From Gemmatimonadota bacterium (lineage in GTDB: Bacteria > 4572-55 > J002): 59,166 nucleotides of DNA. Where the stretch lies: NCBI GenBank assembly GCA_003697105.1, contig RFFQ01000138.1, positions 1 to 59,166 on the forward strand, written 5' to 3'. Below are positions 1 through 17,006 of the stretch, one piece after another. The translations under genes were made by a program, and so were the position numbers. Every line of letters starts with the position of its first letter. Positions within the stretch are counted from its first letter, which is position 1. Under the pieces are notes generated by a model. That model had not been told where the DNA came from and searched no databases. It saw nothing but the letters and a program-made list of their open reading frames with translations.

Positions 1-3000
1 ACCATCAGTTTGACCCACAGCTATGATGCCGACCTCGATATTTATCTGATTAGCCCTGCCGGTACGCGCGTGGAACTCTCCACCGATAATGGCGGGAGTG
101 GTAATGACTATCTCAGCACTGAATTTGATGATGAAGCAAGCACGCCGATTACCAGCGGATCGCCACCCTTTACCGGCACCTTCCGGCCAGAAGGTGCGTT
201 GAGTGCGCTAGATGGGGAATCTATTACCGGGGATTGGACACTAGAAATTACCGACCAATACAACTTGGATGGGGGTACACTAACCATATTTGCCCTCGAC
301 CTCCGTTACATCGACCCGCAACCCGGGACTGCCCTCGATTTTGATGGGATCGATGATGTGGTCACGGTGGCAGATAACAATGTGCTCGATTTAAGTTCCA
401 GCGGAACATTAGAAGCCTGGATTTATCCCACTGTCACCAATAATTATGGCGGGATCATTCATAAAGGGGATCAACCCGATTTTAGCGATGAAGCCTATAC
501 CTTACAACTATGGAATGATGACCGGGTAGCGTTTGCGATTGTCAATTCCGGTGGTACCAGCCAAACCCTATTTTCCACCTCCACATTGACGGCGAACCAG
601 TGGTATCATGTCGCAGCAACGTGGGATGCCAGCGGGATGTCTATCTACTTGAACGGTACATTGGATGCCTCGAACAGTACCGCGATAACGGCACGGAACA
701 GTGCCGGAGGATTGAATATCGGTGCCCAATTGAATGATGCCAGTTATCCCTTTAGCGGGCAAATTGAGGAAGTCCGGTTGTTTAACACCGCCCGCACACA
801 AAGTGAGATTCGCGAAAACATGCATCTGACGTTGGGTGGCTTCGAGACCGGTTTAGTTTCCTATTGGCAGTTGAATGATGCCTCCGGTTCCACTGCCCGC
901 GATGTAAAAAATGCACAGGATGGCACGCTCAACAACATGAACAATGTGGATTGGGTGACCTCAACAGTTGCAACGGGTGGCGGTACCAGCAACACCCAAA
1001 CACCCCCGACTGGTGCCAGTGCTATCACCTTTACCGGCACAGGAATAGTGGCAAATTTTACGGCGAATTCTGCCGCCGACCCCATCGTTGCTACCCGGAT
1101 CAATCTGATGCCATACGCCCCACCAACCGGTCAGGATACCGTTTTTGGCAGTCAGTATTGGGTGATCAATCGCTTTGGGAGTGGCACGTTCAGCGCCAAC
1201 ATGGATTTTACGCTGGCAGATGATCTGAATGCCGTCGATGCCGCCAATCCAAACCGTATCCAACTGTTTGCGCGGGGGAACCGTGAATTTGGTACATGGA
1301 CATTGGTTGCCAACGCCACTGCAGTCAATGAGTTGACCGAAACGGTCACCTTTAACGGGATAACTCAATTTGACCGGCAATTTGTGATCACCCGTTCGAC
1401 AGATATGTATTATGCCAGCAGCACAACAACCCAAAATTCAAATAATGTGTTACAAAACAGTCTCGATCAGCAGATCATTGGGATCGAAATTGTGATGGAT
1501 GGGACAACAAATCCCCTGAGTGTTACCCAGTTTGACCTGAACACCACCGGTACAACGAATACAGCGGACATCGCCAATGCGAAAATCTATTACACCGGTA
1601 CATCCAGCACCTTTTCCACCACCAACCAATTTGGCTCGACCATTGCCGCACCGAACGGTTCGTTTACTATTACGGGGTCTCAGGCACTTAGCGACGGGAC
1701 AAACTACTTCTGGTTGACCTATGATGTTACTGCTGGGGCAACAATCGGGAATCAAATCGATGCGCAGTGTACCGCCTTTGAACTAAACGGTACACGTACC
1801 CCCACGGTCACTGCTCCTGCCGGTGCACGCACCATTGTGGGGACTCCCGATGATTTTCCCGGTTACGCGCTTGATTTTGATGGCGTGGATGATAATGTCC
1901 AAATCCCAGACGATAATTCACTCGATTTAACCAGCACGTACACCGTCGAAGCGTGGATCAATCCGGTCAGTTGGGGTGAAAATAATCGAGGACGGATTGT
2001 AGATAAAAATGTGTACCGGTTTATGCTTCGCAACAATGGCAATTTATGGTGGCGCAGTACAACCGGCGGTTCGGTGCGTACCTCATTTAACAATGTGATT
2101 AATTGGAACCAGTGGCAACATGTGGCGGTCATCTGCGATGGGAGTTCGGTGGAATTCTATGTCAATGGGGTACTTAGCAGTAGCGGACAATCCGCATTAA
2201 CCCTAAGTGCGAGTACCAGTAACCTCTACATCGGCAATAATGGCGGCACTAATAGCACTTTTGAAGGGAAAATTGATGAAGTTCGTATTTGGAATACCGC
2301 CCGCTCGGTGCAAGATTTACGCGAAAATATGCACTTGACCCTCGTAGGGACGGAACCCGGTTTGGTTAGCTACTGGCAGTTTAACGAAGGAACCGGCTCC
2401 ACGACAAGCGACCCCATCAGCGGCAACGATGGTACCCTCAATAACATGGATGCCGCCGATTGGGTAGCTTCTACGGTTGCCACCGGCGCTGGTGCCAGTG
2501 CGACCGCCCAACCAGCAACGGGTGCCAGTACCACCACATTTACTGGGACGGGTGTTTCCATGCGATTCACCACAAACACCGCCTCTGACCCAATTGTGGT
2601 GACCCGAATTGATCGGACACCGAATCTCGTTCCAAGTGGTACGTTCACCGTGTATGATTCGCAATATTGGGTGATCCATCGCTATGGATCCGGCACATTT
2701 GATACCGATTTGATCTTGACCGTTGCCGAAGATTTGACCTCTCTGGAAGCCGCTTACCCCGAACGCCTTAGCCTTTACCGGCGGGATGCCACCTCAGATG
2801 GGGCGTGGACATTAGTCGGTACCGGAACAGAAGTCAATGCGGCAACCGATGAGGTCACGTTTAGCGGTATTACCACCTTTGGGCAATTTTTGGTAGTGCG
2901 AGACATTTATAATGTCAATATTTGTGGGAATGTGACCGCAGATTCCAGTTGGGTTGCAGATACCGTGCGTATCTCCTGTGATGTGACGGTATTGGATGGG

Positions 3001-5775
3001 GTCACATTGACCATTGGCGCCGGTACATACGTGGAATTTCAGGATCATTATAAATTGAATGTCCAAGGGCGACTTTTAGCCAGCGGTACGGCGACGGATT
3101 CGATCACCTTTACCGTGCCGGTAGCCCAGCAAAGTACCGGTTGGCACGGTATCCGGTTCGATCAAACACCCGCAACCAACGATACCTCGCGCATTCAGTA
3201 CTGCAAATTTGAGTACGGTCATGCCACCGATGGGAATCCGAATTATCCCGATACAGAAGATGATCATGGCGGTGCGTTGTTTGTTAAAGGGTTCTCAAAA
3301 TTGATTGTGGAATACTCGCGGTTTGTGAATAATCAAGCTGAATTTGGCGGCGCAATCATGTTGCGTGATACGTCTAACATTGTTATTCGCAATTGTACGA
3401 TTAGCAACAACCAAGCAACCAGTTCCCTGCCGTTTTTTGGATCGATGGGGGGTGGCATTTTTTGCTATCGCTCCAGTCCAATTCTCAGCTATAACACGAT
3501 TGTCAATAATTCGGCAGATTGGCATGGAGGTGGTGTTGTCTGCCATAGCGGATCAAATGCAACGATTACCAACAATACAATCGGGTATAACGTCGCCAAT
3601 GCCTTTTATGGAGGCGGTCTCGCGTGCTTTTTCGATTCCGATCCCGTTTTGACCAATACAATTCTATGGGGCAATACCTCTGCCGCTCTGGATAGTAACG
3701 AGGCATACATTGCCGAATTTGATTCCGATCCGCTCTTCATCAATTGCAACGTACAAGGCGGTATTTTTGACCCCGAAGGACGCCGGATCAAATCCAATCG
3801 AGCCACATTACGAGGAGGACATTTACGCCACGCCGATAATATCGATGCCGACCCCATGTTTGTCCGCCCACCCGCCGGAGCAGGTGTTGATTATAATGGC
3901 TTAGCCGCCGATTGGTCGTTAGTGGCAGAATCCCCCTGTATTGATGCCGGTTTTGAAGGTGATGTGCCACCCCCCGGCGGAGAACCCCGCGTTGATATGG
4001 GTTCGTATGAGTTTGTTCCCGACCGGTCCCAGTCAGTACAGGGCTTGGGCACCTCACTCGATGAAAATTTCATCCGCGGTACCGGATCAGCCATTGCCGC
4101 CACGGCTGGAACAATAGATGCCAACGTGGAATTAGTATTGGAAGACCCCCCGTTGCCGGAGTATCTCCCTCATGTGGCGCGGTTTTGGCGAGTCGAGATC
4201 GATCAGCACTTACGAATATCGCCGTGCGCCTATTTACGATTTTATTATCCAAGGAATGCCTCCGCGGCATTTGAAGGCGCACCTACCATCTATCACCGCC
4301 ACGGTAAAATCTGGTATCCCCTACCGACTTCCACGGAGCAAACCGTCGGACAGTCACATTATGTCCAAACGCTCCAACCCGTTTGTTCGTTTTCTGAATT
4401 TACTGTTGCGGATCAGCCGCCAATGTTTGATATTAGGGTCGATACCGAACCCTTGCTGGATCATCCATCGTCCGGTCAAGTGGAGCATTGTTTAGCCGTT
4501 GAGGTTGATCAACAAGGCATTATCTATGAAACTACCATCACCGACCCGGTTGTCGATGTGAATTACTACGTCTCACCGGATTCTATCGTGAACGTAACGG
4601 ATATGGTGACGGTCAGCGCACCGGCAACGATGGATGGTTTAAGCACCATCTGCCTTATGTATGACTTGAATGACCCTCGCTTGCCGGAAACCGACTACGT
4701 GACCCTACGAGGCGAATTTCAGATAGCTGGGCTGAATTTGTCACCCCAAACAGTTGACTTTCGGATTTTTGTCCTAGATGCCGAGAACGAATTTCAAATT
4801 GCGGATTTCAACGGGGATGGCTGTGTGGAAAGCACAGATTTGCTGACCTTGCTTTACGCTTACGGCTCGCAACCGGCAGATGACAATTGGAATTCGCAGG
4901 TAGATATTGGGGTCGCCGGTGTATATGATGTTATCGGGCGTGATGCCCAAGTGGGCTTTGCGGATTTACTCCGCTTTGCCAGTTACTATGGGATGTGTGA
5001 TAATGCGCCGTTGGTGTGGCACATGGCGCCCGAAATGATGCCGGCAAAACATGCCGGTACAACGAAAAGCGCGCTCCCGCATCTGAATCTGCAACCCCAG
5101 CGGGTCTCCCCCAACCGCATGAGCGTGGATCTGGATGTGGCGGCAGTTACAGACCTGTATGGAGCAAGCCTCAACCTCCACTACCCAGCGGAGCAATTGC
5201 GCGTGGTGCAGGTCACAGAAGGGGATTTCTTGCAGGCAGAGGGTGTCCCAACCTTCTTTTACCAGCAGGCAGAAAATGGTGTCATTCAAATCGATGTCGC
5301 TCGGTTGGGGAATGTGAGCGGCAAGCCGGGAACAGGCACGTTGGCACGGGTCACCTTTGACGTGTTACGTGGCGGCGAATGGTCATTAGAGGTCCAAGCG
5401 GTAAATGCAGTAAATGCGGATTTTCAATCGCTAAACCTGCAAAGCTATCGCTTACAGGGTAATGCCGGTGAGCCGCTAAAACCGGCAATCCCCCAACAGT
5501 ATGGTCTCGCCCAAAATTACCCGAACCCATTCAATCCGGTGACAACAATCCGGTACCAACTCCCGCAGAATGATGTGGTCACGTTGCATGTGTACGATAT
5601 TGCCGGGCGGCTGGTGCGCCGGTTGTTGGAACGCGAAGTTCAGGAGGCGGGCTACTATCGGTTACAATGGGATGGAACGGATGACCGTCACCGCCCGCTT
5701 TCATCGGGTATGTACATTTATCGCTTGGAAACACCGCAGTTTCAATCGACAAAAACCATGATGTTACTCCGTTAA
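1..5775 (+). CDS. Large modular secreted/surface protein, 5' partial (proprotein-convertase P domain, 2x LamG, BNR-associated N-like domain, right-handed beta-helix, dockerin-like, cohesin-like, FlgD-Ig/T9SS-type C-terminal domain)
   Basis: Frame is open from base 1, so the gene starts outside the window. P domain 'DLDIYLISPAGT...GDWTLEITD'; two LamG units 'ALDFDG..D...W.HVA....G.I.EVR'; GGA/GGG-FxxN beta-helix repeats; 'ADFNGDG.V...DL' EF-hand-like pair; C-terminal 'QNYPNPFNP.TTIRY.L...WDG.D..SG.Y.YRL'. Confidence 0.85.
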   Translation, partial: TISLTHSYDADLDIYLISPAGTRVELSTDNGGSGNDYLSTEFDDEASTPITSGSPPFTGTFRPEGALSALDGESITGDWTLEITDQYNLDGGTLTIFALDLRYIDPQPGTALDFDGIDDVVTVADNNVLDLSSSGTLEAWIYPTVTNNYGGIIHKGDQPDFSDEAYTLQLWNDDRVAFAIVNSGGTSQTLFSTSTLTANQWYHVAATWDASGMSIYLNGTLDASNSTAITARNSAGGLNIGAQLNDASYPFSGQIEEVRLFNTARTQSEIRENMHLTLGGFETGLVSYWQLNDASGSTARDVKNAQDGTLNNMNNVDWVTSTVATGGGTSNTQTPPTGASAITFTGTGIVANFTANSAADPIVATRINLMPYAPPTGQDTVFGSQYWVINRFGSGTFSANMDFTLADDLNAVDAANPNRIQLFARGNREFGTWTLVANATAVNELTETVTFNGITQFDRQFVITRSTDMYYASSTTTQNSNNVLQNSLDQQIIGIEIVMDGTTNPLSVTQFDLNTTGTTNTADIANAKIYYTGTSSTFSTTNQFGSTIAAPNGSFTITGSQALSDGTNYFWLTYDVTAGATIGNQIDAQCTAFELNGTRTPTVTAPAGARTIVGTPDDFPGYALDFDGVDDNVQIPDDNSLDLTSTYTVEAWINPVSWGENNRGRIVDKNVYRFMLRNNGNLWWRSTTGGSVRTSFNNVINWNQWQHVAVICDGSSVEFYVNGVLSSSGQSALTLSASTSNLYIGNNGGTNSTFEGKIDEVRIWNTARSVQDLRENMHLTLVGTEPGLVSYWQFNEGTGSTTSDPISGNDGTLNNMDAADWVASTVATGAGASATAQPATGASTTTFTGTGVSMRFTTNTASDPIVVTRIDRTPNLVPSGTFTVYDSQYWVIHRYGSGTFDTDLILTVAEDLTSLEAAYPERLSLYRRDATSDGAWTLVGTGTEVNAATDEVTFSGITTFGQFLVVRDIYNVNICGNVTADSSWVADTVRISCDVTVLDGVTLTIGAGTYVEFQDHYKLNVQGRLLASGTATDSITFTVPVAQQSTGWHGIRFDQTPATNDTSRIQYCKFEYGHATDGNPNYPDTEDDHGGALFVKGFSKLIVEYSRFVNNQAEFGGAIMLRDTSNIVIRNCTISNNQATSSLPFFGSMGGGIFCYRSSPILSYNTIVNNSADWHGGGVVCHSGSNATITNNTIGYNVANAFYGGGLACFFDSDPVLTNTILWGNTSAALDSNEAYIAEFDSDPLFINCNVQGGIFDPEGRRIKSNRATLRGGHLRHADNIDADPMFVRPPAGAGVDYNGLAADWSLVAESPCIDAGFEGDVPPPGGEPRVDMGSYEFVPDRSQSVQGLGTSLDENFIRGTGSAIAATAGTIDANVELVLEDPPLPEYLPHVARFWRVEIDQHLRISPCAYLRFYYPRNASAAFEGAPTIYHRHGKIWYPLPTSTEQTVGQSHYVQTLQPVCSFSEFTVADQPPMFDIRVDTEPLLDHPSSGQVEHCLAVEVDQQGIIYETTITDPVVDVNYYVSPDSIVNVTDMVTVSAPATMDGLSTICLMYDLNDPRLPETDYVTLRGEFQIAGLNLSPQTVDFRIFVLDAENEFQIADFNGDGCVESTDLLTLLYAYGSQPADDNWNSQVDIGVAGVYDVIGRDAQVGFADLLRFASYYGMCDNAPLVWHMAPEMMPAKHAGTTKSALPHLNLQPQRVSPNRMSVDLDVAAVTDLYGASLNLHYPAEQLRVVQVTEGDFLQAEGVPTFFYQQAENGVIQIDVARLGNVSGKPGTGTLARVTFDVLRGGEWSLEVQAVNAVNADFQSLNLQSYRLQGNAGEPLKPAIPQQYGLAQNYPNPFNPVTTIRYQLPQNDVVTLHVYDIAGRLVRRLLEREVQEAGYYRLQWDGTDDRHRPLSSGMYIYRLETPQFQSTKTMMLLR

Positions 5776-5789
5776 TTGAAAGGATAGGC

Positions 5790-7349
5790 ATGGCAAATTA
5801 CCCGTATCAAATCACCACGGAACTGTTTCAAATTCCCCATGAGGATACGTTTTTACTCTATTCCCCCCTCAAGCGGGTGGCATTTCGGGTCAACGAGGCG
5901 ACAATTGACCTGTTAGTGCGTATTCAACGGCAGGAAGAACTTCCACAAACGCCGTCGGTGCAAAAAACCCTCACGTTTTTTGAAGAGATTGGGATTCTGA
6001 ACGGTGAGCCAGACCAACGACCCGCTCATGCCGCCCCACCGGGGAGTGAGTTTCGTCCTACGACCGTAACGCTCTTTCTCACATCGGAATGTAATCTGGG
6101 TTGTGTGTACTGTTATGCCAATGCCGGTGTACAAAAGCTGTTTTTATCGTGGGATATCGCCAAAGCCGCCATTGATTGGGTAATTGAAAATGCACGAGCC
6201 ACGGAAAAAGATAAAATTTTGCTCGATTTTCATGGCGGGGGTGAACCAACCCTCTGTTGGGATGTACTCACGCGGAGTGTGGAATATGCCGAAGCGGAAA
6301 CCCAAAAGTATGGGCTAAAGCTGGATGTATCATTGGCATCGAACGTAATGATCAACCACAAACAGGCACAATGGATTGTAGAACATGTCCACTCCATGAC
6401 CGTTTCGATGGATGGAATGCAAGACATTCAGGACTTACAACGCCCAACAGTTGCCGGAAACGGCTCATTTGAGCGCGTGGTGAGCATCCTTAAGTTTTTT
6501 GATACCCATGATTTTAACTATGGCATCCGAGCAACCATCACCCATTACAATGTGGAGCGAATGACCGAAATGGTGGAATTCTTCGCGGCGACATTCAAAG
6601 CCACTCAATGGAATTTTGAACCCATGTTTGCCGCCGGTCGGGCGTTAGTCACCGGTTCCCCCGAACCGTTTGAAGAGGTGTTTATTCGGGAGTTTCGGCG
6701 GGCACGGGAACGCGCGAAAGAACTGGGACGAAATCTCGCCTATTCCGGGAATATGATCGAACGTATCTCCAACACGTTTTGTGGTGCGCCGGGCAAAAAT
6801 TTCTCGATCACGCCGGATGGCTATATCAGCGCCTGTCACGAAGTCAATAAAGCCACCGACCCCAAAGCCAATCTGTTTATTTATGGGGAGTACGACCCAG
6901 AAAAAAAGACATTTGTGATCCATACCGATAAACTGGATCGCTTGCGCACGTTTACGGTCGATCAGGTCGAATATTGTGACGGCTGCTTTGCCAAATGGCA
7001 CTGCGCTGGAGATTGTGTGGTTAAAGTGGTCAAAACAACGGGGGATTATCACAAACGCACTTCAGAATACCGCTGCCAAATGAACCGGGAATTGACTAAA
7101 GACCGCATTCTGGAACTGGCAAACCACCGGATTATGGTTTCTTTGGAAGAAGATGATGTGTTTTTGCTAAACCCCACAGCGGCTCAGGTACACCAATTGG
7201 TCGAACAAGGCTATCCTCGGGAGGCAATCATCGATGAAATGTGTTCCTTCTATCCAGAGATGTCCCGAGATGTGATCGAGGCAGATGTCGGTGAAATTTT
7301 AGCAGACCTTGCCGAAATTGGTATGTTATCGGATATTTCAACATTGTAA
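5790..7349 (+). CDS. Radical SAM/SPASM peptide maturase with fused C-terminal PqqD/RRE domain
   Basis: CxxxCxxC 'CNLGCVYC', 'FHGGGEP', SPASM cysteines 'C..ITPDG..SAC' and Cx2Cx5Cx3C 'CDGCFAKWHCAGDC'; C-terminal 'LNPTAAQVHQLV...IIDEMCSFY...IEADVGEILADLAEIGML' resembles PqqD; RBS AAGGA. Confidence 0.92.
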   Translation: MANYPYQITTELFQIPHEDTFLLYSPLKRVAFRVNEATIDLLVRIQRQEELPQTPSVQKTLTFFEEIGILNGEPDQRPAHAAPPGSEFRPTTVTLFLTSECNLGCVYCYANAGVQKLFLSWDIAKAAIDWVIENARATEKDKILLDFHGGGEPTLCWDVLTRSVEYAEAETQKYGLKLDVSLASNVMINHKQAQWIVEHVHSMTVSMDGMQDIQDLQRPTVAGNGSFERVVSILKFFDTHDFNYGIRATITHYNVERMTEMVEFFAATFKATQWNFEPMFAAGRALVTGSPEPFEEVFIREFRRARERAKELGRNLAYSGNMIERISNTFCGAPGKNFSITPDGYISACHEVNKATDPKANLFIYGEYDPEKKTFVIHTDKLDRLRTFTVDQVEYCDGCFAKWHCAGDCVVKVVKTTGDYHKRTSEYRCQMNRELTKDRILELANHRIMVSLEEDDVFLLNPTAAQVHQLVEQGYPREAIIDEMCSFYPEMSRDVIEADVGEILADLAEIGMLSDISTL

Positions 7350-7381
7350 CGGGCTGTAACCACCCTAAATTTGAGGTAGGC

Positions 7382-7972
7382 ATGTCTGATGAAAAACGAC
7401 CTGATGATCGGTTAGGTCGCGTTGAAAAATCACGCGCTCCAGCAGATCGTCCGCGGGATCGGCAAACCCCTGCCCCCCCGGAGCAAAAATCGCTAGAGCG
7501 TGACCCGCGCTTACATCGCCGTGAGGAGGAACGGCGCCCCCCCCGCCGGGAGTATATCCGCAAACGCGAACACGACACCAACCCTCGCCGGGATTATCTG
7601 CCGGATTGGCAGGATCAAGATGTCCCGCGTGACCCCAGACAACACCCGGCTTTGGAACGAAACGTAACCCCAGAGCCGTTGGAGCGGGAAGCAGAACCCC
7701 GTCCCGGAGGCCGCCCCCGTTACGAAAAACCAACGGTACGGCGGTATAGCGGTCCCAAACGCGGTGAAGGTGATATCCGGTGCAGTGTTTACTGTGCCAG
7801 TCACGCGGGTGATTGGCAGGTTCCGTGTCCGCCGCAGTGTTTGTCGGTGAACTTTTGCCCCACACAATGCGGATATTATGTTTCCTGCCCCTCTGATGCC
7901 CCGGGCGGCGGCTGCTCTCCACAGGTGATTTGTAGCCCGGATTCATGTAGCCCAGTTTGTGCCTCGAATTAG
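7382..7972 (+). CDS. Putative RiPP precursor peptide (long Arg/Pro/Glu/Asp-rich leader, Cys-rich core)
   Basis: RBS GAGGT; lies 32 bp after the rSAM gene; YxxPx(L/V)-like 'YEKPTV' at 7721-7738; 11 Cys confined to residues 134-193, none in the first 133. Confidence 0.75.
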   Translation: MSDEKRPDDRLGRVEKSRAPADRPRDRQTPAPPEQKSLERDPRLHRREEERRPPRREYIRKREHDTNPRRDYLPDWQDQDVPRDPRQHPALERNVTPEPLEREAEPRPGGRPRYEKPTVRRYSGPKRGEGDIRCSVYCASHAGDWQVPCPPQCLSVNFCPTQCGYYVSCPSDAPGGGCSPQVICSPDSCSPVCASN

Positions 7973-7983
7973 TGGCAACCGTC

Positions 7984-8823
7984 ATGGTGAATCTGTATTT
8001 CCGGTTTTGGGATTTACAACTACGCCTCTGTTTGGGGGATAACCACCTGAAACCCTTTCTGGTGGCACTGTGGGGAATGTATCAAAAAACCGTGTTGCAG
8101 TCCGGTGTGACGACACTAACCTACCATCTCCAAACGGATTCATCCGACGGACGAACACGCTATGCTCTACAAGTTGAGGAGAATGAGCCTAGCCCGTGGG
8201 TCTCTTTTGATGATATTTTTGGGTTATTAAACCATCAATTAAGCTATAACTTGATTAATACCTGTGTGTCCCGGTGCTTGTTTCACAGTTCGGCGATAGT
8301 AACCCCGGACGAACAGGTGATCATGTGTGTGGGCGATGAAGAACAAGGGAAAACATCTCTCGTATTAGGGCTTGTGGAGCGAGGCTATCGCTTTTTTAGT
8401 GATGATATTGTCGCGTTAAACCCTGAAACCACTCAGGTAGAACCCCTTTTAGTCGGTTTGCCGGTGGAAAAGCACACTCTGGAACGATTTCCGTCATTTG
8501 CCGGTCTGAAAACGAAAATGCCGTTTCTCCAGTTGAATCACGGGATTCCCTGTGCCGAACCGGCGGCTTATCCGATTTCCCGTGTGATTTTTGTCGAACG
8601 GGCAATGGAAGGGGAAACGCAACTAAAACCGGTCTCCCTAGCGGAGGCTGCCGGGTTGTGGTTTCAAAATTGGCGCAACCATTATCTCTACCGGCAACCA
8701 CCGCTGGATGTGGTAGCCGGTCTCGCCCAACAGACCCCGGCATTTCGATTAACACAGGTTGATTTGAACCATGCCGTGGAGCAGATCGAACAACTCGAAA
8801 CCGGTAGGGGATTTTTGCCCTAA
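7984..8823 (+). CDS. HPr kinase-related P-loop kinase (lasso-peptide kinase/HprK-related type)
   Basis: 'FHSSAI', Walker A 'GDEEQGKTS', 'GYRFFSDD'. Start is ATG 7984 or GTG 7972, which overlaps the precursor stop. Confidence 0.75.
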   Translation: MVNLYFRFWDLQLRLCLGDNHLKPFLVALWGMYQKTVLQSGVTTLTYHLQTDSSDGRTRYALQVEENEPSPWVSFDDIFGLLNHQLSYNLINTCVSRCLFHSSAIVTPDEQVIMCVGDEEQGKTSLVLGLVERGYRFFSDDIVALNPETTQVEPLLVGLPVEKHTLERFPSFAGLKTKMPFLQLNHGIPCAEPAAYPISRVIFVERAMEGETQLKPVSLAEAAGLWFQNWRNHYLYRQPPLDVVAGLAQQTPAFRLTQVDLNHAVEQIEQLETGRGFLP

Positions 8824-8829
8824 TAACTC

Positions 8830-10071
8830 TTGTTGGGGGTCTATACCCGTGATTTTTACCGCGCCTTTTCCGCCGGGGGTTGGATGTCTGGTCTTGCCCA
8901 AAACCCAGAATTAGCAACGATCTTTTTGCTGGCTCAACCCCAACGCCGTGAAGAGACCTATCAACAGCTTGTTCAATACGTACAAGTGGGATTAAATTGG
9001 CAGCGTTTTTTACGGCAGGTCGAGGTGTTACGGTATGCCGCATGGTGTGGTCATCAATTTGCAGGATATGGTCTGGAGAAAGCAATACCAGCAGACGTTT
9101 TGGCATATATTCGTGACCAATATGTCTGGAATGCCTACCGGGGCAAGGTGCTTCTGAATGCCGCAAACGCGGTGACGGACACGTTGAAATCCGCCGGGTT
9201 AGATGTTCTCTGGTTAAAAGGAATTGCCGCGGCTTCGTTATGTTACGGGGATATACGCCTCCGGCCCATGATGGATGTTGATCTCCTCATCCGGGAGGAC
9301 CAGATACATCTGGCACACGATCTGTTAATAAATGCCGGATGGGGGTATGCGGGAGCACCGCGCGACGTTTGGCACTATCGATCTTATCAGATACATACGT
9401 ATAATCATGCTTATCAACGGGTTGTGCCGGTGGATTCTGGAATGGAGCGGGTTTGGGTGGAACTCCACTGGCGTCCGGCAAGCCAACGGCTTGTCCCCCA
9501 ACTGCCTCCAGACGCATTTTGGGACGCAGTCGGTGTGGCTAAGGATACCCAGCACATGGAAACCCTTTCTCCCGAAAATTTTTTGATACATCTATGTATT
9601 CACCAAGCAAAATCAAATTTTCGCGCGCACTTGAGCCGTTTAGACCTCGCACTGCTGGTGGATCAATATGTCATGGATTGGGATCAAGTTGCCCGCAAAG
9701 CAGAAAAATGGGGATTACAACGGATGGTCACCGCCGCATTAACAGATGTGCAAGTGGTATTCGGAAGTAAGATTCCGCCGATCGACCAATCAGCGAGGCT
9801 ATCGCTTGGGGTGAGATACCTCCAGCAACAAGGACGGAAAGCCACTTACACGTTGTTAGATCGATTTGACATTACCCCCTACCAATTGCTCTTTTTGGAG
9901 AGATGGTCAGACCGATTTCGGTTTTTGGGGTCCGTGTTGTTTTACCCCAATTCACATGACCTAAAGCGATGGGCATTATCCCCCTCAACTCAAATATTAT
10001 ATATGATCATAAAACCGGTTCGTTTATGTGTTACGCTTTTCGTGAGGATTTTTAGCTTTGTATTTCGGTAA
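8830..10071 (+). CDS. Nucleotidyltransferase family protein (NTP_transf_5-like)
   Basis: 'WLKG', 'RPMMDVDLLI' (DxD), 'VELHW', 'HLCIH'. Start uncertain (TTG 8830 or ATG 8884). Confidence 0.85.
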   Translation: MLGVYTRDFYRAFSAGGWMSGLAQNPELATIFLLAQPQRREETYQQLVQYVQVGLNWQRFLRQVEVLRYAAWCGHQFAGYGLEKAIPADVLAYIRDQYVWNAYRGKVLLNAANAVTDTLKSAGLDVLWLKGIAAASLCYGDIRLRPMMDVDLLIREDQIHLAHDLLINAGWGYAGAPRDVWHYRSYQIHTYNHAYQRVVPVDSGMERVWVELHWRPASQRLVPQLPPDAFWDAVGVAKDTQHMETLSPENFLIHLCIHQAKSNFRAHLSRLDLALLVDQYVMDWDQVARKAEKWGLQRMVTAALTDVQVVFGSKIPPIDQSARLSLGVRYLQQQGRKATYTLLDRFDITPYQLLFLERWSDRFRFLGSVLFYPNSHDLKRWALSPSTQILYMIIKPVRLCVTLFVRIFSFVFR

Positions 10072-12520
10072 TGGTAAGAATTATCCAGTAGAAGTCACAA
10101 CATCGTCATATCTTGAGGCGGATTTTGATGTCCGCAAATATGTACGGATGTTGTGGCGACGGCGGTACATCGTATTGCTGTTATTTGTGCTTATTTTTGG
10201 GTTTAGTACTTATCGTGCACTAACCCAAAAAGTAACACCGGTGTATCGATCGACGGTTTATCTCGAAGTGGATGAAAAAGAGACGAATATCCGTCTTTTG
10301 CCGCAGTTCAGTTCGGTGCGGCAACAGTCCATTTATTGGGGGAGTCCGGAAGGAAAAATTATTGCGGAGGTGTTGAGTACTTCTGTCATTGAAGAAGTCG
10401 TTCAAATGCTGGATTTGGATAAAGCCGTGCATTCCATCTCGCCCAATTTATCCTTTTCGATGACGAATATTCAGAGCCACAATGCCCCGTTGGGGACCTA
10501 TCGCGTCCATATTTTAGATAATCAGCATTATGTGGTTTACGATACCGCCAATCGCGAACTGGGGCGAGGCATCAGCGGGGTACCCTTTCAGCATGAATTT
10601 TTTGAGTTTACCATTTCCAACATTGAGGGACCGCCCCAAAGTGAATTTTATTTTACGTTGTACCCGCTTCAGCGAGCGGTCAATTCGGTGAGAGCCGCCA
10701 CCCATGCCCAAGCAACAACACGGGCGGCAATTCAGGATAATGTTGCTGGCGGAGGAATCGCCGGAGCCGCCAGTGCCAAGCGCTCCCGTAAAGATGCGGC
10801 GATTCAGGATGCGGGCATTGTTCAAGTGGATGTGTATTGGCAAGACCCCGAAACGGCTACCCAAATCGCCAATGCTCTGGCAGACGTGATCCGGCATCGC
10901 GAACTCGAAGATAAACGGTTAGAACATACCAAAACTCGGGAATATATCGAACGTCAGTTGAACACTTATACCCAAAAATTGAAGGCGTCAGAAGAAGCAC
11001 TCCAGACCTATAAAGAGCAAAATCGAATCTATGAATTGGATGCAATTGCTCGGGATGTCACCTATAAAGTGTTTGATATTGAAGCTGAAATCAGCCAAAT
11101 TCAAGCCGAACGAGAACGAATTAAGCTCTTTCGGGAAAAAGTTACCAGTGGCTTACAACCGGAAGATTATTTGTTGATTAGTGCGATCCCATTTCAAGAT
11201 GAGGAAGGTTACGGATATTGGGATGTACTCAGCCAATTGACCTCGCAATTGATGGAGCTTGAAATCCAACTTCCGCTAAAGTTAGAGGAAATGACCGAAA
11301 ACCATCCCGACATTATCGCCTTAAAAAATCAGATCCAACAAGTTCGGTTGCGATTGCAACAGCAAGTTGATGCGCGGCTTACGATGCTGGATTCCCGCGA
11401 AGAAAGCCTCCGGCTACAACTGTTGCCGTACCAACAGCAACTGGAAACCTTTCCGTTGAAAGAGGTTGAACTCGCCCGGTTGGAACGCGAATTTCGACTC
11501 AATGAGGAGATTTATTCCCTCCTCACCCGCCAGCATGAACAAACCCGGCTGGCAGAAGCCGCGATTGTTAATGATATTCAGGTGTTAGATTATGCCAGTA
11601 TCCCAACCGCCCCGATTGGTGGGGGACCCAATCGCCAAAAAGCCATTTTACTGGGGGCACTATTGGGGATCGGTGTGGGGTTAGGGGTCGCATTTCTCCT
11701 GGAATTTCTGGATAATACCATCCGTGAAACGGATGAGATTGAACGCCACATCCAATTACCGGTTTACGGTATGATCCCCCAAATAGAATCTATCAAAAAT
11801 GGCCGGCGGACTCATAAAGCAAAAGCAAGATTTGAAACACTGGTTACGCATCTAGCACCAAAATCGATACCGTCTGAAGCGTTCCGATCACTTCGAACGA
11901 ATATTCAATTTTTTGATCTGTCACGCCAGTCCGAAGCAATTTTGATCACCAGTGCCGTTTCAGAAGAGGGAAAATCCACAACGTGTGCTAATTTAGCAAT
12001 TACTACCGCTCAAGTGGGCCGGAAAACGCTTTTAATTGATGGAGACCTGCGTAAACCGGTTATTCATCACCTCTTTGAGGCACCCAGTGAACCCGGTCTG
12101 ACCGATGTCTTATTGGGCCGATACACATGGCAGGAGGTCATTCATTCTACCTCCGTGCCGGGCTTAGATATTATATGTTCCGGGACCCAGCCACCAAACC
12201 CTTCCGAATTGCTGAGTTCACCAGAATTGAAATCCCTGATTACCACCCTTAAAGAGCACTATGATATGATCTTATTCGATTCACCACCGGTAATACCGGT
12301 TGCGGATAGTGTTGCGTTGAGTACCAATGTGGATGGGGTATTATTAGTGGTATCCGCGGGTAAAACAGACCGTCATGCGCTCCAGCGCACACGTGATTTA
12401 TTGCACAATGTAAATGCCCGGATTATGGGAGCTGTGTTGAATAATGTTCGCATCAACGAGATATATGGTTATCAAAAACATTACTATTACTACGACACGA
12501 AAAAACCGGTGAAGGTATAA
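10058..12520 (+). CDS. wzc: Wzc-like polysaccharide co-polymerase / BY-kinase (tyrosine autokinase)
   Basis: Two TM segments around a periplasmic coiled coil; 'EAFRSLRTN', Walker A 'EEGKSTT', A' 'IDGDLRKP', B 'LFDSPP'; C-terminal Tyr cluster 'YGYQKHYYYYD'. Confidence 0.93.
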   Translation: MYFGNGKNYPVEVTTSSYLEADFDVRKYVRMLWRRRYIVLLLFVLIFGFSTYRALTQKVTPVYRSTVYLEVDEKETNIRLLPQFSSVRQQSIYWGSPEGKIIAEVLSTSVIEEVVQMLDLDKAVHSISPNLSFSMTNIQSHNAPLGTYRVHILDNQHYVVYDTANRELGRGISGVPFQHEFFEFTISNIEGPPQSEFYFTLYPLQRAVNSVRAATHAQATTRAAIQDNVAGGGIAGAASAKRSRKDAAIQDAGIVQVDVYWQDPETATQIANALADVIRHRELEDKRLEHTKTREYIERQLNTYTQKLKASEEALQTYKEQNRIYELDAIARDVTYKVFDIEAEISQIQAERERIKLFREKVTSGLQPEDYLLISAIPFQDEEGYGYWDVLSQLTSQLMELEIQLPLKLEEMTENHPDIIALKNQIQQVRLRLQQQVDARLTMLDSREESLRLQLLPYQQQLETFPLKEVELARLEREFRLNEEIYSLLTRQHEQTRLAEAAIVNDIQVLDYASIPTAPIGGGPNRQKAILLGALLGIGVGLGVAFLLEFLDNTIRETDEIERHIQLPVYGMIPQIESIKNGRRTHKAKARFETLVTHLAPKSIPSEAFRSLRTNIQFFDLSRQSEAILITSAVSEEGKSTTCANLAITTAQVGRKTLLIDGDLRKPVIHHLFEAPSEPGLTDVLLGRYTWQEVIHSTSVPGLDIICSGTQPPNPSELLSSPELKSLITTLKEHYDMILFDSPPVIPVADSVALSTNVDGVLLVVSAGKTDRHALQRTRDLLHNVNARIMGAVLNNVRINEIYGYQKHYYYYDTKKPVKV

Positions 12521-12598
12521 TCAATCCCCCCCCTTCGGACTTGCGGCTTCGGGGGGCTTCGTGCCACCGGCGCAACGTGTCAATAATCCCCTCGTATA

Positions 12599-12641
12599 AA
12601 TAAAACCCTTAGGAGAATTGAATACACCTAAGGGTTTTATT
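12599..12641. terminator. Bidirectional intrinsic terminator candidate between wzc and the convergent gene
   Basis: Perfect 15-bp inverted repeat AATAAAACCCTTAGG / CCTAAGGGTTTTATT with A/T-rich outer ends. Confidence 0.7.
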
Positions 12642-12665
12642 ATCAGGGGACTAAGGCATACAAAA

Positions 12666-13952
12666 CTACTTCTGAATAATCTTTTCCTGCCTTAATTCTA
12701 CTTTAATTTTACCGTTATCAACTTCAATGAGGGCGTCATCCGGGTTTTGCCCCGCATCGCGGAGGCGTTGTTCGATGAGGGTTTTGATTTCCGCATCGGT
12801 TTTTCCTTTCAATTCCGCGGGGTCTATCAGCTCTTGGGTGATGTGTAGCTCCGGCTCAGGGGTATCTTCTGCCCCTGCCCCCACAAAGACCCGAACTTCT
12901 TCAGTGTGGACGGTTTGACCCTCATTACCGGTAGAGGAACTAATGGTTTCAATCTGCACATGATCCCCTTTGCGGACGACAATTTGGGGTTCTCCTGCTT
13001 GACCTTCTTCCGTACCGGTCCACTCCCCACCGTTTTGTAACGATTGGGCTTTGAGCCGCTCTGCCACAATCGCCTGAACTTCCGCTTCGGATTTACCTTC
13101 CAAGTCCCCATCATGGAGCATGAGTGAAAATGAATACGCATTTTGCCCATGTTTGGGGTTAGACTCCCCATCCGTGATTGACATCACAATGGTTTGTTGA
13201 CCTTCACGCTCAGGCTGAGGAGGAATCGAAAGCCGCATTCGTCGCTCACCGTTTTCTTCCTCATATTCAACGTGAGCTTCATGAATACCAGCCGCTTCTA
13301 ATTGGCGTTGCATCTCTGCCACCACATCGCTACTGCTCATATGTTGTGTGTTGATTTCGATACGGAATACCGATTTCAGGGCGGCGGCATACATCGGGCG
13401 CGTAACCGTTTCTTGTAAAGGGAGCATTTTTACCTCACTAACTTGGGATAACGATTCTAAATCCTGCCGCCACAATTCCGCTTGTTGGGCGGATACCCCC
13501 ACGGCATTCATCAAATACATTGTGGAGTGCTGACCGTTATTGATATTGTGTGAGACCGACAAATTGGATTCATCCATCCAGTCAAAGTGTGTTACCAGCC
13601 GGTTTGCCGCTTCTGGGGTGTCGTTTACCGTCCATGAAAGGACGTAGCCAACAATATCTTCCTGTTCAACCGGCATGGTGCACGCCACCAAGATCATCAG
13701 CATCAGAACTGCCAAACTGGCAAACCGCAACCGGTGGGATTTAATGTAGGTTATCATAGGGAATGTCCTCCGTTTAAGAGATGATTCGTTCATTCGGGAC
13801 TGATAGGCACTGACCTGACGTAACCAGGCATCCGTTTGGTCAAAGGACGCACGGTGGTCATCATTTTTCAAGGCAGACCAGTACGAACTCCATTTGGAAT
13901 CAGTCCAGTCGCCCGTCGATGTTGACTTTCGCCACCAATTGAAGCGTCTCAT
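12666..13952 (-). CDS. Membrane-anchored/lipoprotein partner (putative anti-sigma factor) of the upstream ECF sigma
   Basis: Overlaps the sigma factor stop; ATG 13952 has AGGAGA; second in-frame ATG 13757 has GGAGG; hydrophobic segment ends in lipobox-like LVAC. Confidence 0.6.
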   Translation of the reverse strand: MRRFNWWRKSTSTGDWTDSKWSSYWSALKNDDHRASFDQTDAWLRQVSAYQSRMNESSLKRRTFPMITYIKSHRLRFASLAVLMLMILVACTMPVEQEDIVGYVLSWTVNDTPEAANRLVTHFDWMDESNLSVSHNINNGQHSTMYLMNAVGVSAQQAELWRQDLESLSQVSEVKMLPLQETVTRPMYAAALKSVFRIEINTQHMSSSDVVAEMQRQLEAAGIHEAHVEYEEENGERRMRLSIPPQPEREGQQTIVMSITDGESNPKHGQNAYSFSLMLHDGDLEGKSEAEVQAIVAERLKAQSLQNGGEWTGTEEGQAGEPQIVVRKGDHVQIETISSSTGNEGQTVHTEEVRVFVGAGAEDTPEPELHITQELIDPAELKGKTDAEIKTLIEQRLRDAGQNPDDALIEVDNGKIKVELRQEKIIQK

Positions 13953-14523
13953 GTTCAATGTCTCCTATCAGGGGTTTAAACGTTGTGGTATGCAACCGTT
14001 GGGACTCTTGAGCCGTCATCCGGCGCCGCATTTTTCGCCGGGCACGGCTCAACCGTGATTTAATGGTGGAGGCGCTCTTTTCCTGCTGAATATGCTGAAT
14101 TTCCTCGATAGAAAATCCGGCGATCTCAAACAGCAAAATTGCCGCACGCTCTTTGTCAGACAAGCTACTGAGGGCTTGCCGCAACATCAGTTTTGTTTCA
14201 TCGGATTCCGCCCGATCATACACTGGGGGCATCTTCGGTAGATTCTCATCATCTGTTGCCGGAAATTCCAGCGGTAAAAATCGCTTCCAGAAGTGACGTC
14301 GTACTACCGAATGAAACTCGTTGGTGATTATCTGAAAGAGCCACGGTTTAAATCGGGTTGGGTCTCGTAAGGTATTAAACTTTTCGTACGCCTTGAGTAG
14401 GGCTTGCTGGAGCACATCTTCTGCTTCTTCCGCCGAAAAACGGGCGCACAAGGAACGGCAATAAGTTAATGCCTCGGAGTAATGTGGCTTTAACGCCTCA
14501 CTAAAGTGATCCACAAGGGACAT
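13900..14523 (-). CDS. ECF sigma-70 family RNA polymerase sigma factor
   Basis: Region 2 'AEDVLQQALLKAY...FKPWLFQI', region 4 'GFSIEEI...STIKSRLSRARR'. Confidence 0.9.
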   Translation of the reverse strand: MSLVDHFSEALKPHYSEALTYCRSLCARFSAEEAEDVLQQALLKAYEKFNTLRDPTRFKPWLFQIITNEFHSVVRRHFWKRFLPLEFPATDDENLPKMPPVYDRAESDETKLMLRQALSSLSDKERAAILLFEIAGFSIEEIQHIQQEKSASTIKSRLSRARRKMRRRMTAQESQRLHTTTFKPLIGDIEHETLQLVAKVNIDGRLD

Positions 14524-14579
14524 GGTTCAAATCCGGATTTGAGTTAAGAGAATCAACGGTTGCTTCTGAACTCACTCTT

Positions 14580-14608
14580 TAGACGAAGAACAGCCTTGAA
14601 AAGTCGCA
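14580..14608 (-). promoter_or_regulatory. Putative ECF-type (autoregulatory) promoter
   Basis: Minus strand TGCGAC-N17-CGTCTA upstream of the ECF gene. Confidence 0.45.
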
Positions 14609-14646
14609 AAAAAATTAACGTGGTTTTTTTGAGGAGGAAAGTTAGG

Positions 14647-17006
14647 TCATCGCGGTTCACAACGCGCTTCTAAATGTGCCATAAAATCGGTAATGGCATG
14701 TTGCGTTTGCTGGTAGCATTCCTGTAAACGCGGTAAAAGAGCTTTTATCTCCGTGATACCGTCCATGTGTTCCGTTTGTTCGCATAAAATGGCTAGACAC
14801 TTCACCCCCAAATTGGAACTGGAGCCTTTTAAGGAATGCAACATCCGGCGGGCGGTTTTGAGATCACCTTCGGCTAGGCTTTTTTCAGTTTTAACTAGAT
14901 ACTCTTCGGCTTCGGGCAAATACATTTGGAGCAGTTCGATCAAAAAATCAGGACTACCATTACCCATGGAAAGGATGTCATCTAGGATATGATAATCTAA
15001 CAGGTCGCGTGGGGGGTGGGGTTTGGCGGTAGCATGGGTGTGGCTCTCAGTGACGTGGTGTCCCCAGCGTTCTAAAACTTGCACCAGTTCCATCAGTTGA
15101 ATAGGCTTACTAAGATAATCATCCATTCCGGCGGCTAAACAGCGCTCCCGGTCTCCCTGCATGGCATTCGCCGTCATGGCAATAATGTGAGGTCGGTTTT
15201 CTGGGGGATATTGTTCAAGGATGCGTTTCGTTGTTTCCAGACCATCCATTTCGGGCATCTGCATATCCATAAAAATAAGGTCATAGGGTTGGCGCTGCAG
15301 TGCCTCTAAAACCTCGATGCCGTTGCCGGCAACATCTGCCCGATAACCCATTTTTTCCAACATTCGCTGTACCAATCGCTGGTTGACGGCATTATCTTCC
15401 GCCAATAGAATATGCATAGGTAGGCGTTTCGCCAACGTTTTGTCAAATCGGGTCTCGACCACCTTTTGCGGTTGGGGGCGGAAAATGCGGGTATCCGCAA
15501 AGACAGCAATAATGGTATCAAATAGTGTGATAATTTCACCGGTTTCGTGATTGCCGCCTGAAATAGCTCACGCATACCACTAGTAAGTGTCGTCGAACTG
15601 AGGAGGATCAGCGGAAGGCGATGTCGAGGGAACGTCTCCCGGATGTGGTGGGCAAGCTCTAACCCGTCCATTCCCGGCATGTGTAAATCAAGAATTGCGA
15701 GGTCAAATACCGCATCCTGAAGGGCTTGAATCGCCTTTTCACCGGATGCCACCGCATGGGGACGCATCTTCCACCGTTCAAATTGGCGTGTTAAAATCCG
15801 GCAATTGGTGGGGTTATCATCCACGATCAGAATGCGTTTACCCGCCAATTCGGGGGCATCATCCACCGGAAACCGGGAAGCTTTGACCTCGGCGGATTGT
15901 GTGGGAAGGGTAAAATAGAAGGTTGATCCACTACCCAGACGGCTCTCCACCCAGATGGTGCCCCCCATCAGTTGAACCAAACGGGAACAAATGGCCAGCC
16001 CCAAACCAGTGCCGCCAAATTTACGGGTGATGGAGGAATCCACTTGCGAAAAGGACTGAAACAACCGGTCAAGCCGGTCTTCTGGAATACCGATTCCAGT
16101 ATCTCGCACGGCAAATTGAAGCACGACACCCGTTTCGGTACGGGAAGCAACCGTGACTGAAACAAACACTTCCCCTTTTTCTGTGAATTTAATCGCATTC
16201 CCCACCAAATTGACCAACACTTGCCGTAGCCGGGTAATGTCACCTGTAATACCGGTCGGAACATCCGAATCGATCAGATACAGCAGATCAAGCCGTTTTT
16301 CTAAGGCTTTGGTAGAGAGGAGATCGAATGTCTCTTCAATGCACTGGTGCAGATCGAAGGGCACATGCTCCAATTCCATTTTGCCGGATTCGATCTTGGA
16401 AAAATCAAGAATATCGTTGATGATCGCCAGCAAGGTTTCACCACTCACCCGGATAGCCTCCACATATTCTTGCTGTTCCGCCGTGAGGGGAGTCCCCCGT
16501 AACAGACTGGTCATGCCGATCACCCCGTTCATGGGGGTGCGGATTTCATGACTCATTGTGGCTAAAAAGCTGGATTTCGCTTTGGTGGCGGCTTCCGCGG
16601 CGGCTTTTGCTTCCCGCAAAGAGGCTTCGATCTGCTGGCGTTCCCGAAGTTCCTGCTCTAAATTTTCGTTCAGTTGCTGGAGCGTACGTGTCCGCTCTTC
16701 TACAAGGTTTTCAAGGTGACGATGTTGTTGCCGTAGTTCTTCCTCCGCTTGCCGGCGATGATAGATATTGTACAGTAGGGCCAGAATCATCAACATAAAG
16801 ACCAAAAACACGCCAATAACATCCCACATCAAATCTTCATAGCGATGAAAGATAAACGTCAGTAGATCGATCAGCCGTTCAACCGGAATTTCGGATATTT
16901 GAGAAGAGTTCCCTCCTGTTTGTGCCTTGCTTGTTGATACTATAGCCAGTAGAATCCAACTAACCCATAACCGCCCAACCTCCCCCATGAAGCGTTGGTT
17001 ATGCAT
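14647..17006 (-). pseudogene. Hybrid sensor histidine kinase (HisKA-HATPase-REC-REC-Hpt) split by a 1-bp frameshift near 15525
   Basis: 'SHEIRTPMNG', 'NLVGNAIKFT', 'DTGIGI', 'GGTGLGL' and first REC in 15306..17006; second REC and Hpt ('HSLKGSS') in 14647..15462. Adding one base at TCACA^CTATTT joins them as ...[16 protein letters not shown]...VETRFDK. Confidence 0.8.

Follow-up and report, generated by a model that had tools for sequence, protein, structure and literature searches.

Two kinds of described peptide-modification system come closest to the locus analysed here, a run of five genes at positions 5790-12520 of a 59,166-nucleotide stretch of DNA from a hot-spring bacterium (the window). 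The first kind phosphorylates a peptide and then elaborates the phosphate. For lasso peptides of the paeninodin and pseudomycoidin type, one report describes a kinase, PsmK, that puts one to three phosphates on a Ser of pseudomycoidin, and a second enzyme, PsmN, that is needed for the addition of a +162 Da hexose to the phosphate and is inactive as a D134A/D136A mutant (PMC6993621). A 2026 report describes linear polyphosphorylated peptides (LPP), made by lasso-independent clusters of a recognition element for peptides that are synthesized ribosomally and post-translationally modified (RiPP recognition element, RRE), an HprK kinase and an uncharacterised nucleotidyltransferase (NTase) that are embedded in capsule loci; LppK polyphosphorylates core Ser3 of a linear peptide whose leader carries the motif YxxPxVLxHQxIxFETxxS, and the same text gives [Y/W]xxPx[L/V/I/F/A] as the leader motif read by lasso-type RREs (PMC13381572). 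The second kind comprises the ranthipeptide and SCIFF-type radical S-adenosylmethionine (rSAM) maturases, such as CteB, PapB and QhpD, which have a CxxxCxxC motif, a seven-Cys SPASM region and an RRE-like domain at the N-terminus, and whose Cys-rich substrate is encoded by the neighbouring gene. Two further cassettes, HPr-rel-A (TIGR04352 and TIGR04353) and SynChlorMet (ScmC/D/E/F), are uncharacterised; both hold an HprK-related protein and a PqqD protein, and SynChlorMet also an rSAM/SPASM enzyme.

The window, which is contig C14 of a 4.18-Mb assembly from base 1, encodes on its plus strand, in this order, an rSAM/SPASM enzyme, a Cys-rich 196-aa precursor, an HprK-like kinase, a PF14907 (NTP_transf_5) NTase-fold protein, and a Wzc-type protein. 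The rSAM enzyme and the Cys-rich open reading frame (ORF) form a genuine, conserved maturase-precursor pair. We propose that the five genes are a hybrid RiPP-type operon that would join two normally separate modules, one for crosslinking and one for phosphorylation and tailoring, inside a Wza...Wzc polysaccharide-export locus, and on balance we modestly favour this account, taken as a whole and as one pathway. A RiPP reading is supported for the rSAM-precursor pair and plausible for the kinase and NTase steps.

Like the lpp cluster of Paenibacillus alginolyticus, the locus has an RRE, an HprK-like kinase and a PF14907 NTP transferase, no lasso cyclase, and a polysaccharide-locus setting. It differs from that cluster in having neither an SpI-type leader peptidase nor an MsbA-type exporter among the scanned genes, an RRE that is fused to an rSAM enzyme instead of discrete, a kinase with a weak family match, a precursor with only the YxxPxV part of the LPP leader motif, and a host of a Gram-negative-type hot-spring lineage where the LPP host belongs to the Bacillota (PMC13381572). 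An earlier note on this DNA, made from the letters alone, had placed the kinase and the NTase in the two enzyme families that tailor paeninodin-type lasso peptides (PadeK or PsmK, and PsmN), and the literature agrees (PMC6993621, PMC13381572); the locus genes, however, include no lasso cyclase (C) or B2 protease, and the precursor ends in Ser-Asn, not Ser. The link that the note drew to SynChlorMet did not hold up: the rSAM enzyme reaches 47.1 bits with the ScmE model against a cut-off of 400, the kinase has no ScmC match, and an 89-aa PqqD protein encoded upstream reaches 34.1 bits with ScmD against 100. For HPr-rel-A, the scores are 46.1 bits against 200 (TIGR04352, kinase) and 20.1 against 35 (TIGR04353, PqqD domain). 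Compared with the ranthipeptide and SCIFF systems, the rSAM enzyme scores 128.9 bits with PapB (NF047865; cut-off 340) and 129.2 with SCIFF (TIGR03974; cut-off 425), carries an additional C-terminal PqqD domain, and is paired with a distinct precursor family, in which a [KR]P[DN]DR leader precedes CxC-repeat cores that often end in CxCVPVH. The locus lies outside every named family tested, and in its working most resembles a maturase of ranthipeptide type to which a tailoring set of LPP type has been added.

A radical SAM maturase and its Cys-rich partner

The first gene (5790-7349 in the ORF listing, plus strand) encodes a 519-aa protein that matches Pfam Radical_SAM with 38.4 bits (cut-off 29.5). 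Its CxxxCxxC cluster motif (C101, C105 and C108; 6090-6113) is followed by a SPASM region (6780-7076) in which C331, G344, C349, C396, C399, C405, C409 and C429 form what we take to be the seven-Cys SPASM motif for two auxiliary clusters. A word search with the protein returned 191 homologues at E<=1e-10, of which the 119 listed besides the query share 31-45% identity and are mostly 440-480 aa long; the CxxxCxxC motif, the seven SPASM Cys and G344 do not vary in any of the 23 homologues aligned. Among solved structures, the nearest is 5wgg (E 6.7e-28), which we take to be CteB, a thioether-forming SCIFF maturase, and the best NCBIfam matches are the SCIFF, nif11-type, PapB and QhpD maturases, all under cut-off. 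By analogy with these enzymes, we lean narrowly towards thioether crosslinks as what the rSAM enzyme installs in the Cys-rich core.

The protein appears to carry two recognition domains. In the AlphaFold model (mean pLDDT 88), the N-terminal region (residues ~1-85; 5790-6044) contains strands at residues 13-17, 20-25 and 30-34 and helices at 36-46 and 55-66 (pLDDT 83-95). Residues 13-66 are therefore predicted to have the shape of an N-terminal RRE, as in the rSAM homologues, and Y24 and P26 of this domain are invariant in the homologue alignment. After a poorly modelled linker, a separate three-helix PqqD domain occupies residues 462-509 of the model, within the fused C-terminal PqqD (RRE) domain that Pfam detects at residues 448-513 (7131-7328; 37.5 bits against 23.4). 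PqqD domains bind peptides. The best NCBIfam matches of this domain are the lasso PqqD model NF033530 (26 bits) and TIGR04353, both under cut-off. Of 120 rSAM homologues among the matches listed, the window's own protein is the only one with a C-terminal PqqD domain (PF05402). Because its homologues lack this domain and 78 of 80 family loci also lack a separate PqqD gene, the N-terminal domain must suffice for the rSAM family. The PqqD domain expected of the enzyme is thus present, but the modelled N-terminal domain speaks against PqqD as its sole recognition element.

The pairing of enzyme and precursor was followed across genomes. A scan of species-representative genomes confirmed 536 relatives of the rSAM enzyme, and the best 80 loci, used for the neighbourhood counts of this family, span Acidobacteriota, Verrucomicrobiota, Coriobacteriia, Chloroflexota, Bacteroidota, Pseudomonadota, Patescibacteria and archaea. 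With three loci cut by a contig end excluded, the next plus-strand gene, at or just after the rSAM stop, has a Cys-rich tail (five or more Cys among the final 60 residues) in 42 of the 77 assessable loci and fails this rule in 35. Among the 42 Cys-tailed partners, 32 are shorter than 260 aa and 10 longer, and 29 have a CxCxP[VI] ending, typically CxCVPVH. In the closest five assessable loci (L012-L016), all precursors begin M..[KG]PDDR, like the window's. The earlier note had proposed the rSAM enzyme and the Cys-rich ORF as an enzyme-substrate pair and had asked whether the closest rSAM homologues lack an adjacent Cys-rich ORF; the opposite was found, and the leader [KR]P[DN]DR is common to the closest homologues.

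The leader is conserved beyond these nearest relatives. The motif [DN]DR lies within the first 45 residues in 20 of 28 aligned precursors, the window's included, and ~25-30 residues past it most precursors carry an aromatic-x(1-2)-P-x-hydrophobic block (F-x-R-P-G-L-E-T-Y-F or F-K-P-G-M-K-T-Y-F). The window's precursor gene (7382-7972, plus strand, 196 aa in the ORF listing) is the sole copy found in the genome, and chance-level matches were all that a precursor search of 40 other genomes gave. Its product begins MSDEKRPDDR, with the leader motif KRPDDR at residues 5-10, and continues through a ~100-aa insert rich in Arg, Pro and Glu to YEKPTV (residues 114-119; 7721-7738, plus strand) and a core with 11 Cys from residue 134. 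YEKPTV aligns with the aromatic-Pro block (F-x-R-P-G-L / F-K-P-G-M), shifted by the insert, and also fits [Y/W]xxPx[L/V/I/F/A]. A predicted complex of PqqD residues 437-519 with precursor residues 100-145 reached 0.32, where the mark lies at 0.34; the control with chain 1 replaced reached 0.44.

The family of rSAM enzymes with CxC-repeat precursors is widespread and appears undescribed. Family rSAMs reach no NCBIfam cut-off, and no Pfam or NCBIfam model matches four canonical precursors or the window's. An ESM Atlas search with a canonical precursor gave a best score of 0.75 and no usable match, and our literature search found no description of an rSAM enzyme with a [KR]P[DN]DR-leader/CxC-repeat precursor family; a mention of CxC in PMC10288494 was considered as such a record and set aside, as it concerns an MftC-like group instead. 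The 536 relatives, from gut Coriobacteriia to Acidobacteriota and archaea and without a curated model, would represent a large untouched class of probable crosslinked peptides or proteins.

In 14 loci (L019, L021, L024, L026, L028, L031, L034, L035, L040, L058, L059, L062, L066 and L074) the partner is a protein of 450-1300 aa instead of a short peptide. These long partners have a conserved P-x-F-x-L-x-R-V..DG....EI.PV N-terminus, an RRGFLG segment that is twin-arginine translocation (Tat)-like or transmembrane, and repeats that look WD40-like by eye. Several end in a ...PCG.PIP.GA.CTCNCVPG...CTC..ICTCVPV tail, and the rSAM family therefore seems to act on whole proteins; those of L021, L026, L031 and L074 have the long-partner N-terminus without the Cys tail.

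A kinase and a nucleotidyltransferase beside the maturase

The third gene (7957-8823, plus strand, 288 aa; the database form from ATG 7984 has 279 aa) encodes a candidate HprK-like peptide kinase with a Walker A motif, GDEEQGKT, followed by an SDD motif. Besides the low TIGR04352 score, it gives 19.9 bits with Pfam Hpr_kinase_C (cut-off 33.3), and a word search returned itself only. Its family comprises 743 representatives at E<=1e-3, of which one besides itself reaches E<=1e-30 (P0133, 31% identity), and we regard the kinase, from its sequence, as a divergent member of a large family. The call of an HPr-kinase-like protein is thus the least firm of the domain calls, its model scores lying under cut-off. 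A literature search found no paper with the phrase 'HprK-related kinase'. The fourth gene (8830-10071, plus strand; ORF listing and Pfam) encodes the NTase, for which the predicted NTP_transf_5 domain (PF14907) is borne out at 2e-44. A G131...D149-x-D151 motif is common to it and its closest relative, P0123 (38% identity). When metagenomes were scanned with this pair, a single distant locus emerged (L091, 22% identity), whose surroundings were uninformative.

PF14907 is present in 126 of 401 sampled genomes. From the listing we took the first 40 distinct genomes and surveyed the top match in each, passing over second matches, with flanks of up to 9.5 kb, several of which stop at contig ends, using profiles and single-sequence searches, of which the PqqD search has low sensitivity. 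Around these 40 genes, HprK-like genes were found in 20 cases, PqqD genes in 12, Wzc-like genes in 6 and Wza-like genes in 4. The Wzc-like gene is on the NTase strand in all 6 cases, within ~10 kb, and the Wza-like gene is on the same strand in 4 of the 40 loci. The survey supports the pairing of these genes and a Wzc neighbour now and then. PqqD, HprK-like kinase and PF14907 are a second, separately mobile module.

In the proposed hybrid pathway, the N-terminal recognition domain of the rSAM/SPASM enzyme would bind the precursor leader (KRPDDR, YEKPTV), and the enzyme would most likely form Cys-derived thioether crosslinks in the 11-Cys core, like CteB, PapB and QhpD. The fused PqqD domain, of lasso/LPP type, would hold the same precursor for the HprK-like kinase, which would (poly)phosphorylate a Ser, and the PF14907 enzyme would then attach a further group, hexose or nucleotide, to the phosphate. 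The product would be crosslinked, phosphorylated, and then nucleotidylated or glycosylated, as the earlier note had suggested. What the analysis shows is the gene order, the domains, the catalytic motifs, the conserved rSAM-precursor pairing, and the rarity and layout of the hybrid; each of these chemical steps, and the identity of the kinase substrate, we infer. That the kinase acts on the 196-aa precursor we consider probable. The two modules are interleaved, with PqqD fused to the rSAM enzyme, the precursor gene between the PqqD domain and the kinase gene, and one terminator ending the set, and we therefore argue for one pathway. If so, the locus would be a natural experiment in pathway fusion, in which a second recognition domain on an rSAM maturase hands one precursor to two unrelated chemistries.

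The hybrid is rare, and a number of results weigh against a single pathway. Hidden Markov model (HMM) searches found an HprK-like gene in one of the 80 rSAM-family loci (L054) and an NTase in none, two of the 80 have PqqD and one has Wzc, and the rSAM family is present in none of the 40 PF14907 loci. The adjacency of the two modules could be recent and not yet functional. The window's core has CxxxC-like Cys spacing, with neither CxC repeats nor the CxCxP[VI] ending of the 29 family members, and because of this atypical core we treat the precursor as divergent. All NCBIfam matches to named RiPP families are far under cut-off, two relatives at class level (G001 and G002) lack an rSAM homologue and match PF14907 only weakly, and domain scans of the locus genes, upstream extension included, show neither a peptidase nor an exporter of peptides. 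Least secure in the proposal is the NTase step, because LppN showed no activity in the published heterologous system (PMC13381572).

These counts bear on the alternative that two independent systems lie side by side, the rSAM enzyme and its peptide being self-contained and the PqqD/HprK/NTase set, as part of the Wza-Wzc locus, serving another substrate, for example one bound by PqqD proteins encoded upstream. The rSAM family occurs without the trio in 79 of 80 loci, PF14907 loci occur without the rSAM family in 40 of 40, and in 6 of 40 the PF14907/HprK set stands beside Wzc without any rSAM; the rSAM enzyme already has an RRE-like domain at its N-terminus, and Wza has two more PqqD genes beside it in the same locus. 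Chance adjacency, however, would not be expected to give a covalent PqqD-rSAM fusion with the precursor gene placed between PqqD and kinase, the YEKPTV of the precursor fits the motif of lasso-type RREs, and the ORF listing holds no other candidate small substrate ORF in 5790-12520. We judge two independent systems to be unlikely, and retain the single hybrid pathway as the working account.

Among the best 80 loci, the only other rSAM-family locus with an HprK-like gene, L054:5671-9200 of a Thiotrichaceae metagenome-assembled genome, encodes the rSAM enzyme, an 80-aa Cys-free peptide with a P.F.L..V...I.PV leader, the HprK-like protein (4e-47 to the profile), and an 88-aa PqqD protein, and has no PF14907 gene. 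A further observation concerns the stretch RR-x-SGPK just before the Cys-rich core, which is shared by the window (7760-7780) and two Actinomycetota precursors (L025 and L036) in the forms RRYSGPK, RRLSGPK and KRVSGPK. This stretch might serve for phosphorylation or for cleavage; within 10 kb, L025 and L036 showed no HprK-like gene.

Setting within a polysaccharide-export locus

The fifth gene (10058-12520, plus strand; ORF listing, Pfam and NCBIfam) encodes a Wzc-type co-polymerase with Wzz, GNVR and P-loop bacterial tyrosine kinase (BY-kinase) domains (TIGR01007, 195.6 bits against 108) and a C-terminal Tyr cluster, YGYQKHYYYY, read from the sequence. Its identification as Wzc is thus confirmed by the Wzz and GNVR domains, the autokinase domain and the Tyr tail together. 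Its first 14 bp are shared with the end of the NTase gene. Across the genome there are three Wzc paralogues of full length and two genes for Wza, and because of these further genes the Wza/Wzc pair of this locus could be dedicated to it. Domain scans found no glycosyltransferase, flippase or polymerase between Wza and Wzc.

The five genes were all found on the plus strand, as had been claimed, with spacings of +32, -16 (or +11 from ATG 7984), +6 and -14 bp, so that no gap exceeds 32 bp and some of the genes overlap. Shine-Dalgarno-like purine-rich stretches lie, by eye, 7-8 bp before the rSAM and precursor starts. Downstream, an intrinsic terminator hairpin with a U-run (12601-12644, strand not assigned) lies between convergent genes; its 13-bp stem (12601-12639) has a ΔG of -24.1 kcal/mol and a z of -4.7, and 0 of 200 shuffles folded equally well, which bears out the terminator predicted after Wzc. 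A promoter/terminator consensus scan, in which promoter-like and terminator-like sites were no more numerous than in shuffled sequence, did not list the hairpin because its loop is 13 nt. Pfam and NCBIfam scans also agree that the five genes include no cyclase, peptidase or transporter. As a unit, the five-gene operon stands in its genes and its downstream end, but not in a 5' limit at 5790, since a very large ORF ends at 5775, 14 bp before the rSAM gene.

The locus is in fact longer than five genes. Searches of the genome for PqqD, which also recovered the domain fused to the rSAM enzyme, and for Poly_export both led to the start of contig C48, where the reverse complement of C48:1-99 is identical to window positions 1-99, a 99-mer that is unique in the assembly; the reading frame is continuous across the join with 33 shared codons. 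A Logan contig from run X1 spans window positions 1-13000 and reaches 7873 bases further upstream, and a 2108-base contig from run X2 begins with the same 99 bases. C48 thus joins the window contig, and the order in the window's direction is a ~320-bp AT-rich gap, a Wza-like gene, genes for 147-aa and 89-aa PqqD proteins, a 124-bp gap, a gene for a ~2235-aa protein, the five genes, and the terminator. The Wza-like exporter (C48, same strand as the operon, 258 aa) has Poly_export and SLBB domains and gives 109 bits with TIGR03027 (cut-off 180). Both PqqD genes are on C48 and on the same strand; the 147-aa protein has, by eye, a hydrophobic Tat-like N-terminus (TRRGALKY), and the 89-aa protein is ScmD-like. 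They directly follow the short Wza-like gene and precede that of the giant secreted protein (L092, G000:C48, 1157-2673, minus strand of C48).

The polysaccharide setting raises the alternative that neither the kinase nor the NTase has a peptide substrate, both acting in the polysaccharide pathway itself, be it on a sugar, on a lipid carrier or on Wzc. The Cys-rich protein would then have a structural or metal-binding function in crosslinked form, without ever being cleaved to, or exported as, a small natural product. Wza and Wzc bracket the locus, the scanned genes lack a leader peptidase and a peptide exporter, the family proteins of 450-1300 aa carry the same C-terminal Cys motif, showing that the rSAM enzyme can act on whole proteins, and in the published system no activity of LppN on the peptide was detected (PMC13381572). 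Against this, the two reports consulted have PsmK, LppK and PadeK (as cited there) all phosphorylating a peptide Ser (PMC6993621, PMC13381572), and Wzc has a complete autokinase domain and Tyr cluster of its own. PqqD domains, moreover, are peptide-binding. We regard a polysaccharide-pathway substrate as improbable.

A more speculative extension of the peptide pathway would reconcile it with its surroundings: the crosslinked, Ser-phosphorylated peptide, instead of being a free natural product, would be the acceptor for a phosphodiester-linked glycan built by the PF14907 enzyme and the polysaccharide machinery, and the polymer, peptide-capped or peptide-primed and so a bacterial 'proteophosphoglycan', would exit via Wza-Wzc. 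If true, this would explain the recurrence of PqqD/HprK/PF14907 sets in polysaccharide-export loci and why the locus encodes no peptide exporter or leader peptidase. We consider the proposal improbable. Under the hybrid pathway more generally, the locus would add a Gram-negative-type, Wza/Wzc-bracketed case to the kinase/NTase peptide pathways in capsule loci, and what such peptides contribute to the polysaccharide becomes a question that a small set of genes could test. Any part that Wza and Wzc, the pair of PqqD proteins encoded upstream, or the giant secreted protein may play in the pathway is putative.

The last of these is a ~2235-aa surface protein whose 3' 1924 codons occupy positions 1-5775 of the window (plus strand) and whose start lies on C48 (L092:1-1032). 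Its domains are a signal peptide, two P-domains, an Ig-like domain, two LamG domains, BNR_assoc_N, a beta-helix, a cohesin-like domain, and a C-terminal sorting domain of the type IX secretion system (T9SS). A subtilisin-type protease ahead of the P-domain was considered and ruled out, as the protein begins with the signal peptide and two P-domains; it stands mid-locus with P-domains of proprotein-convertase type and no protease domain.

A second sample of the same hot-spring study covers positions 694-11025 on one contig with 23 differences, none an indel, and the predicted operon is intact in this close variant; the comparison is of contigs from two DNA runs (X1 and X2) of one study, which are not independent in habitat. 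In run X2, 15 clustered base differences fall at 1092-1188, within the giant-protein gene. Convergent with the operon, on the minus strand at 12666-17006, lie genes for a 430-aa protein of no known family, an extracytoplasmic function (ECF)-type sigma factor, and, by eye, a response regulator and a hybrid histidine kinase, which are possible regulators of the operon. The genome's fourth PqqD domain is in an 87-aa open frame (L093, G000:C9, 1195-3866, minus strand) beside an ATP-grasp protein and a pyridoxal phosphate (PLP)-dependent decarboxylase, a group that may be a separate peptide-modification cluster.

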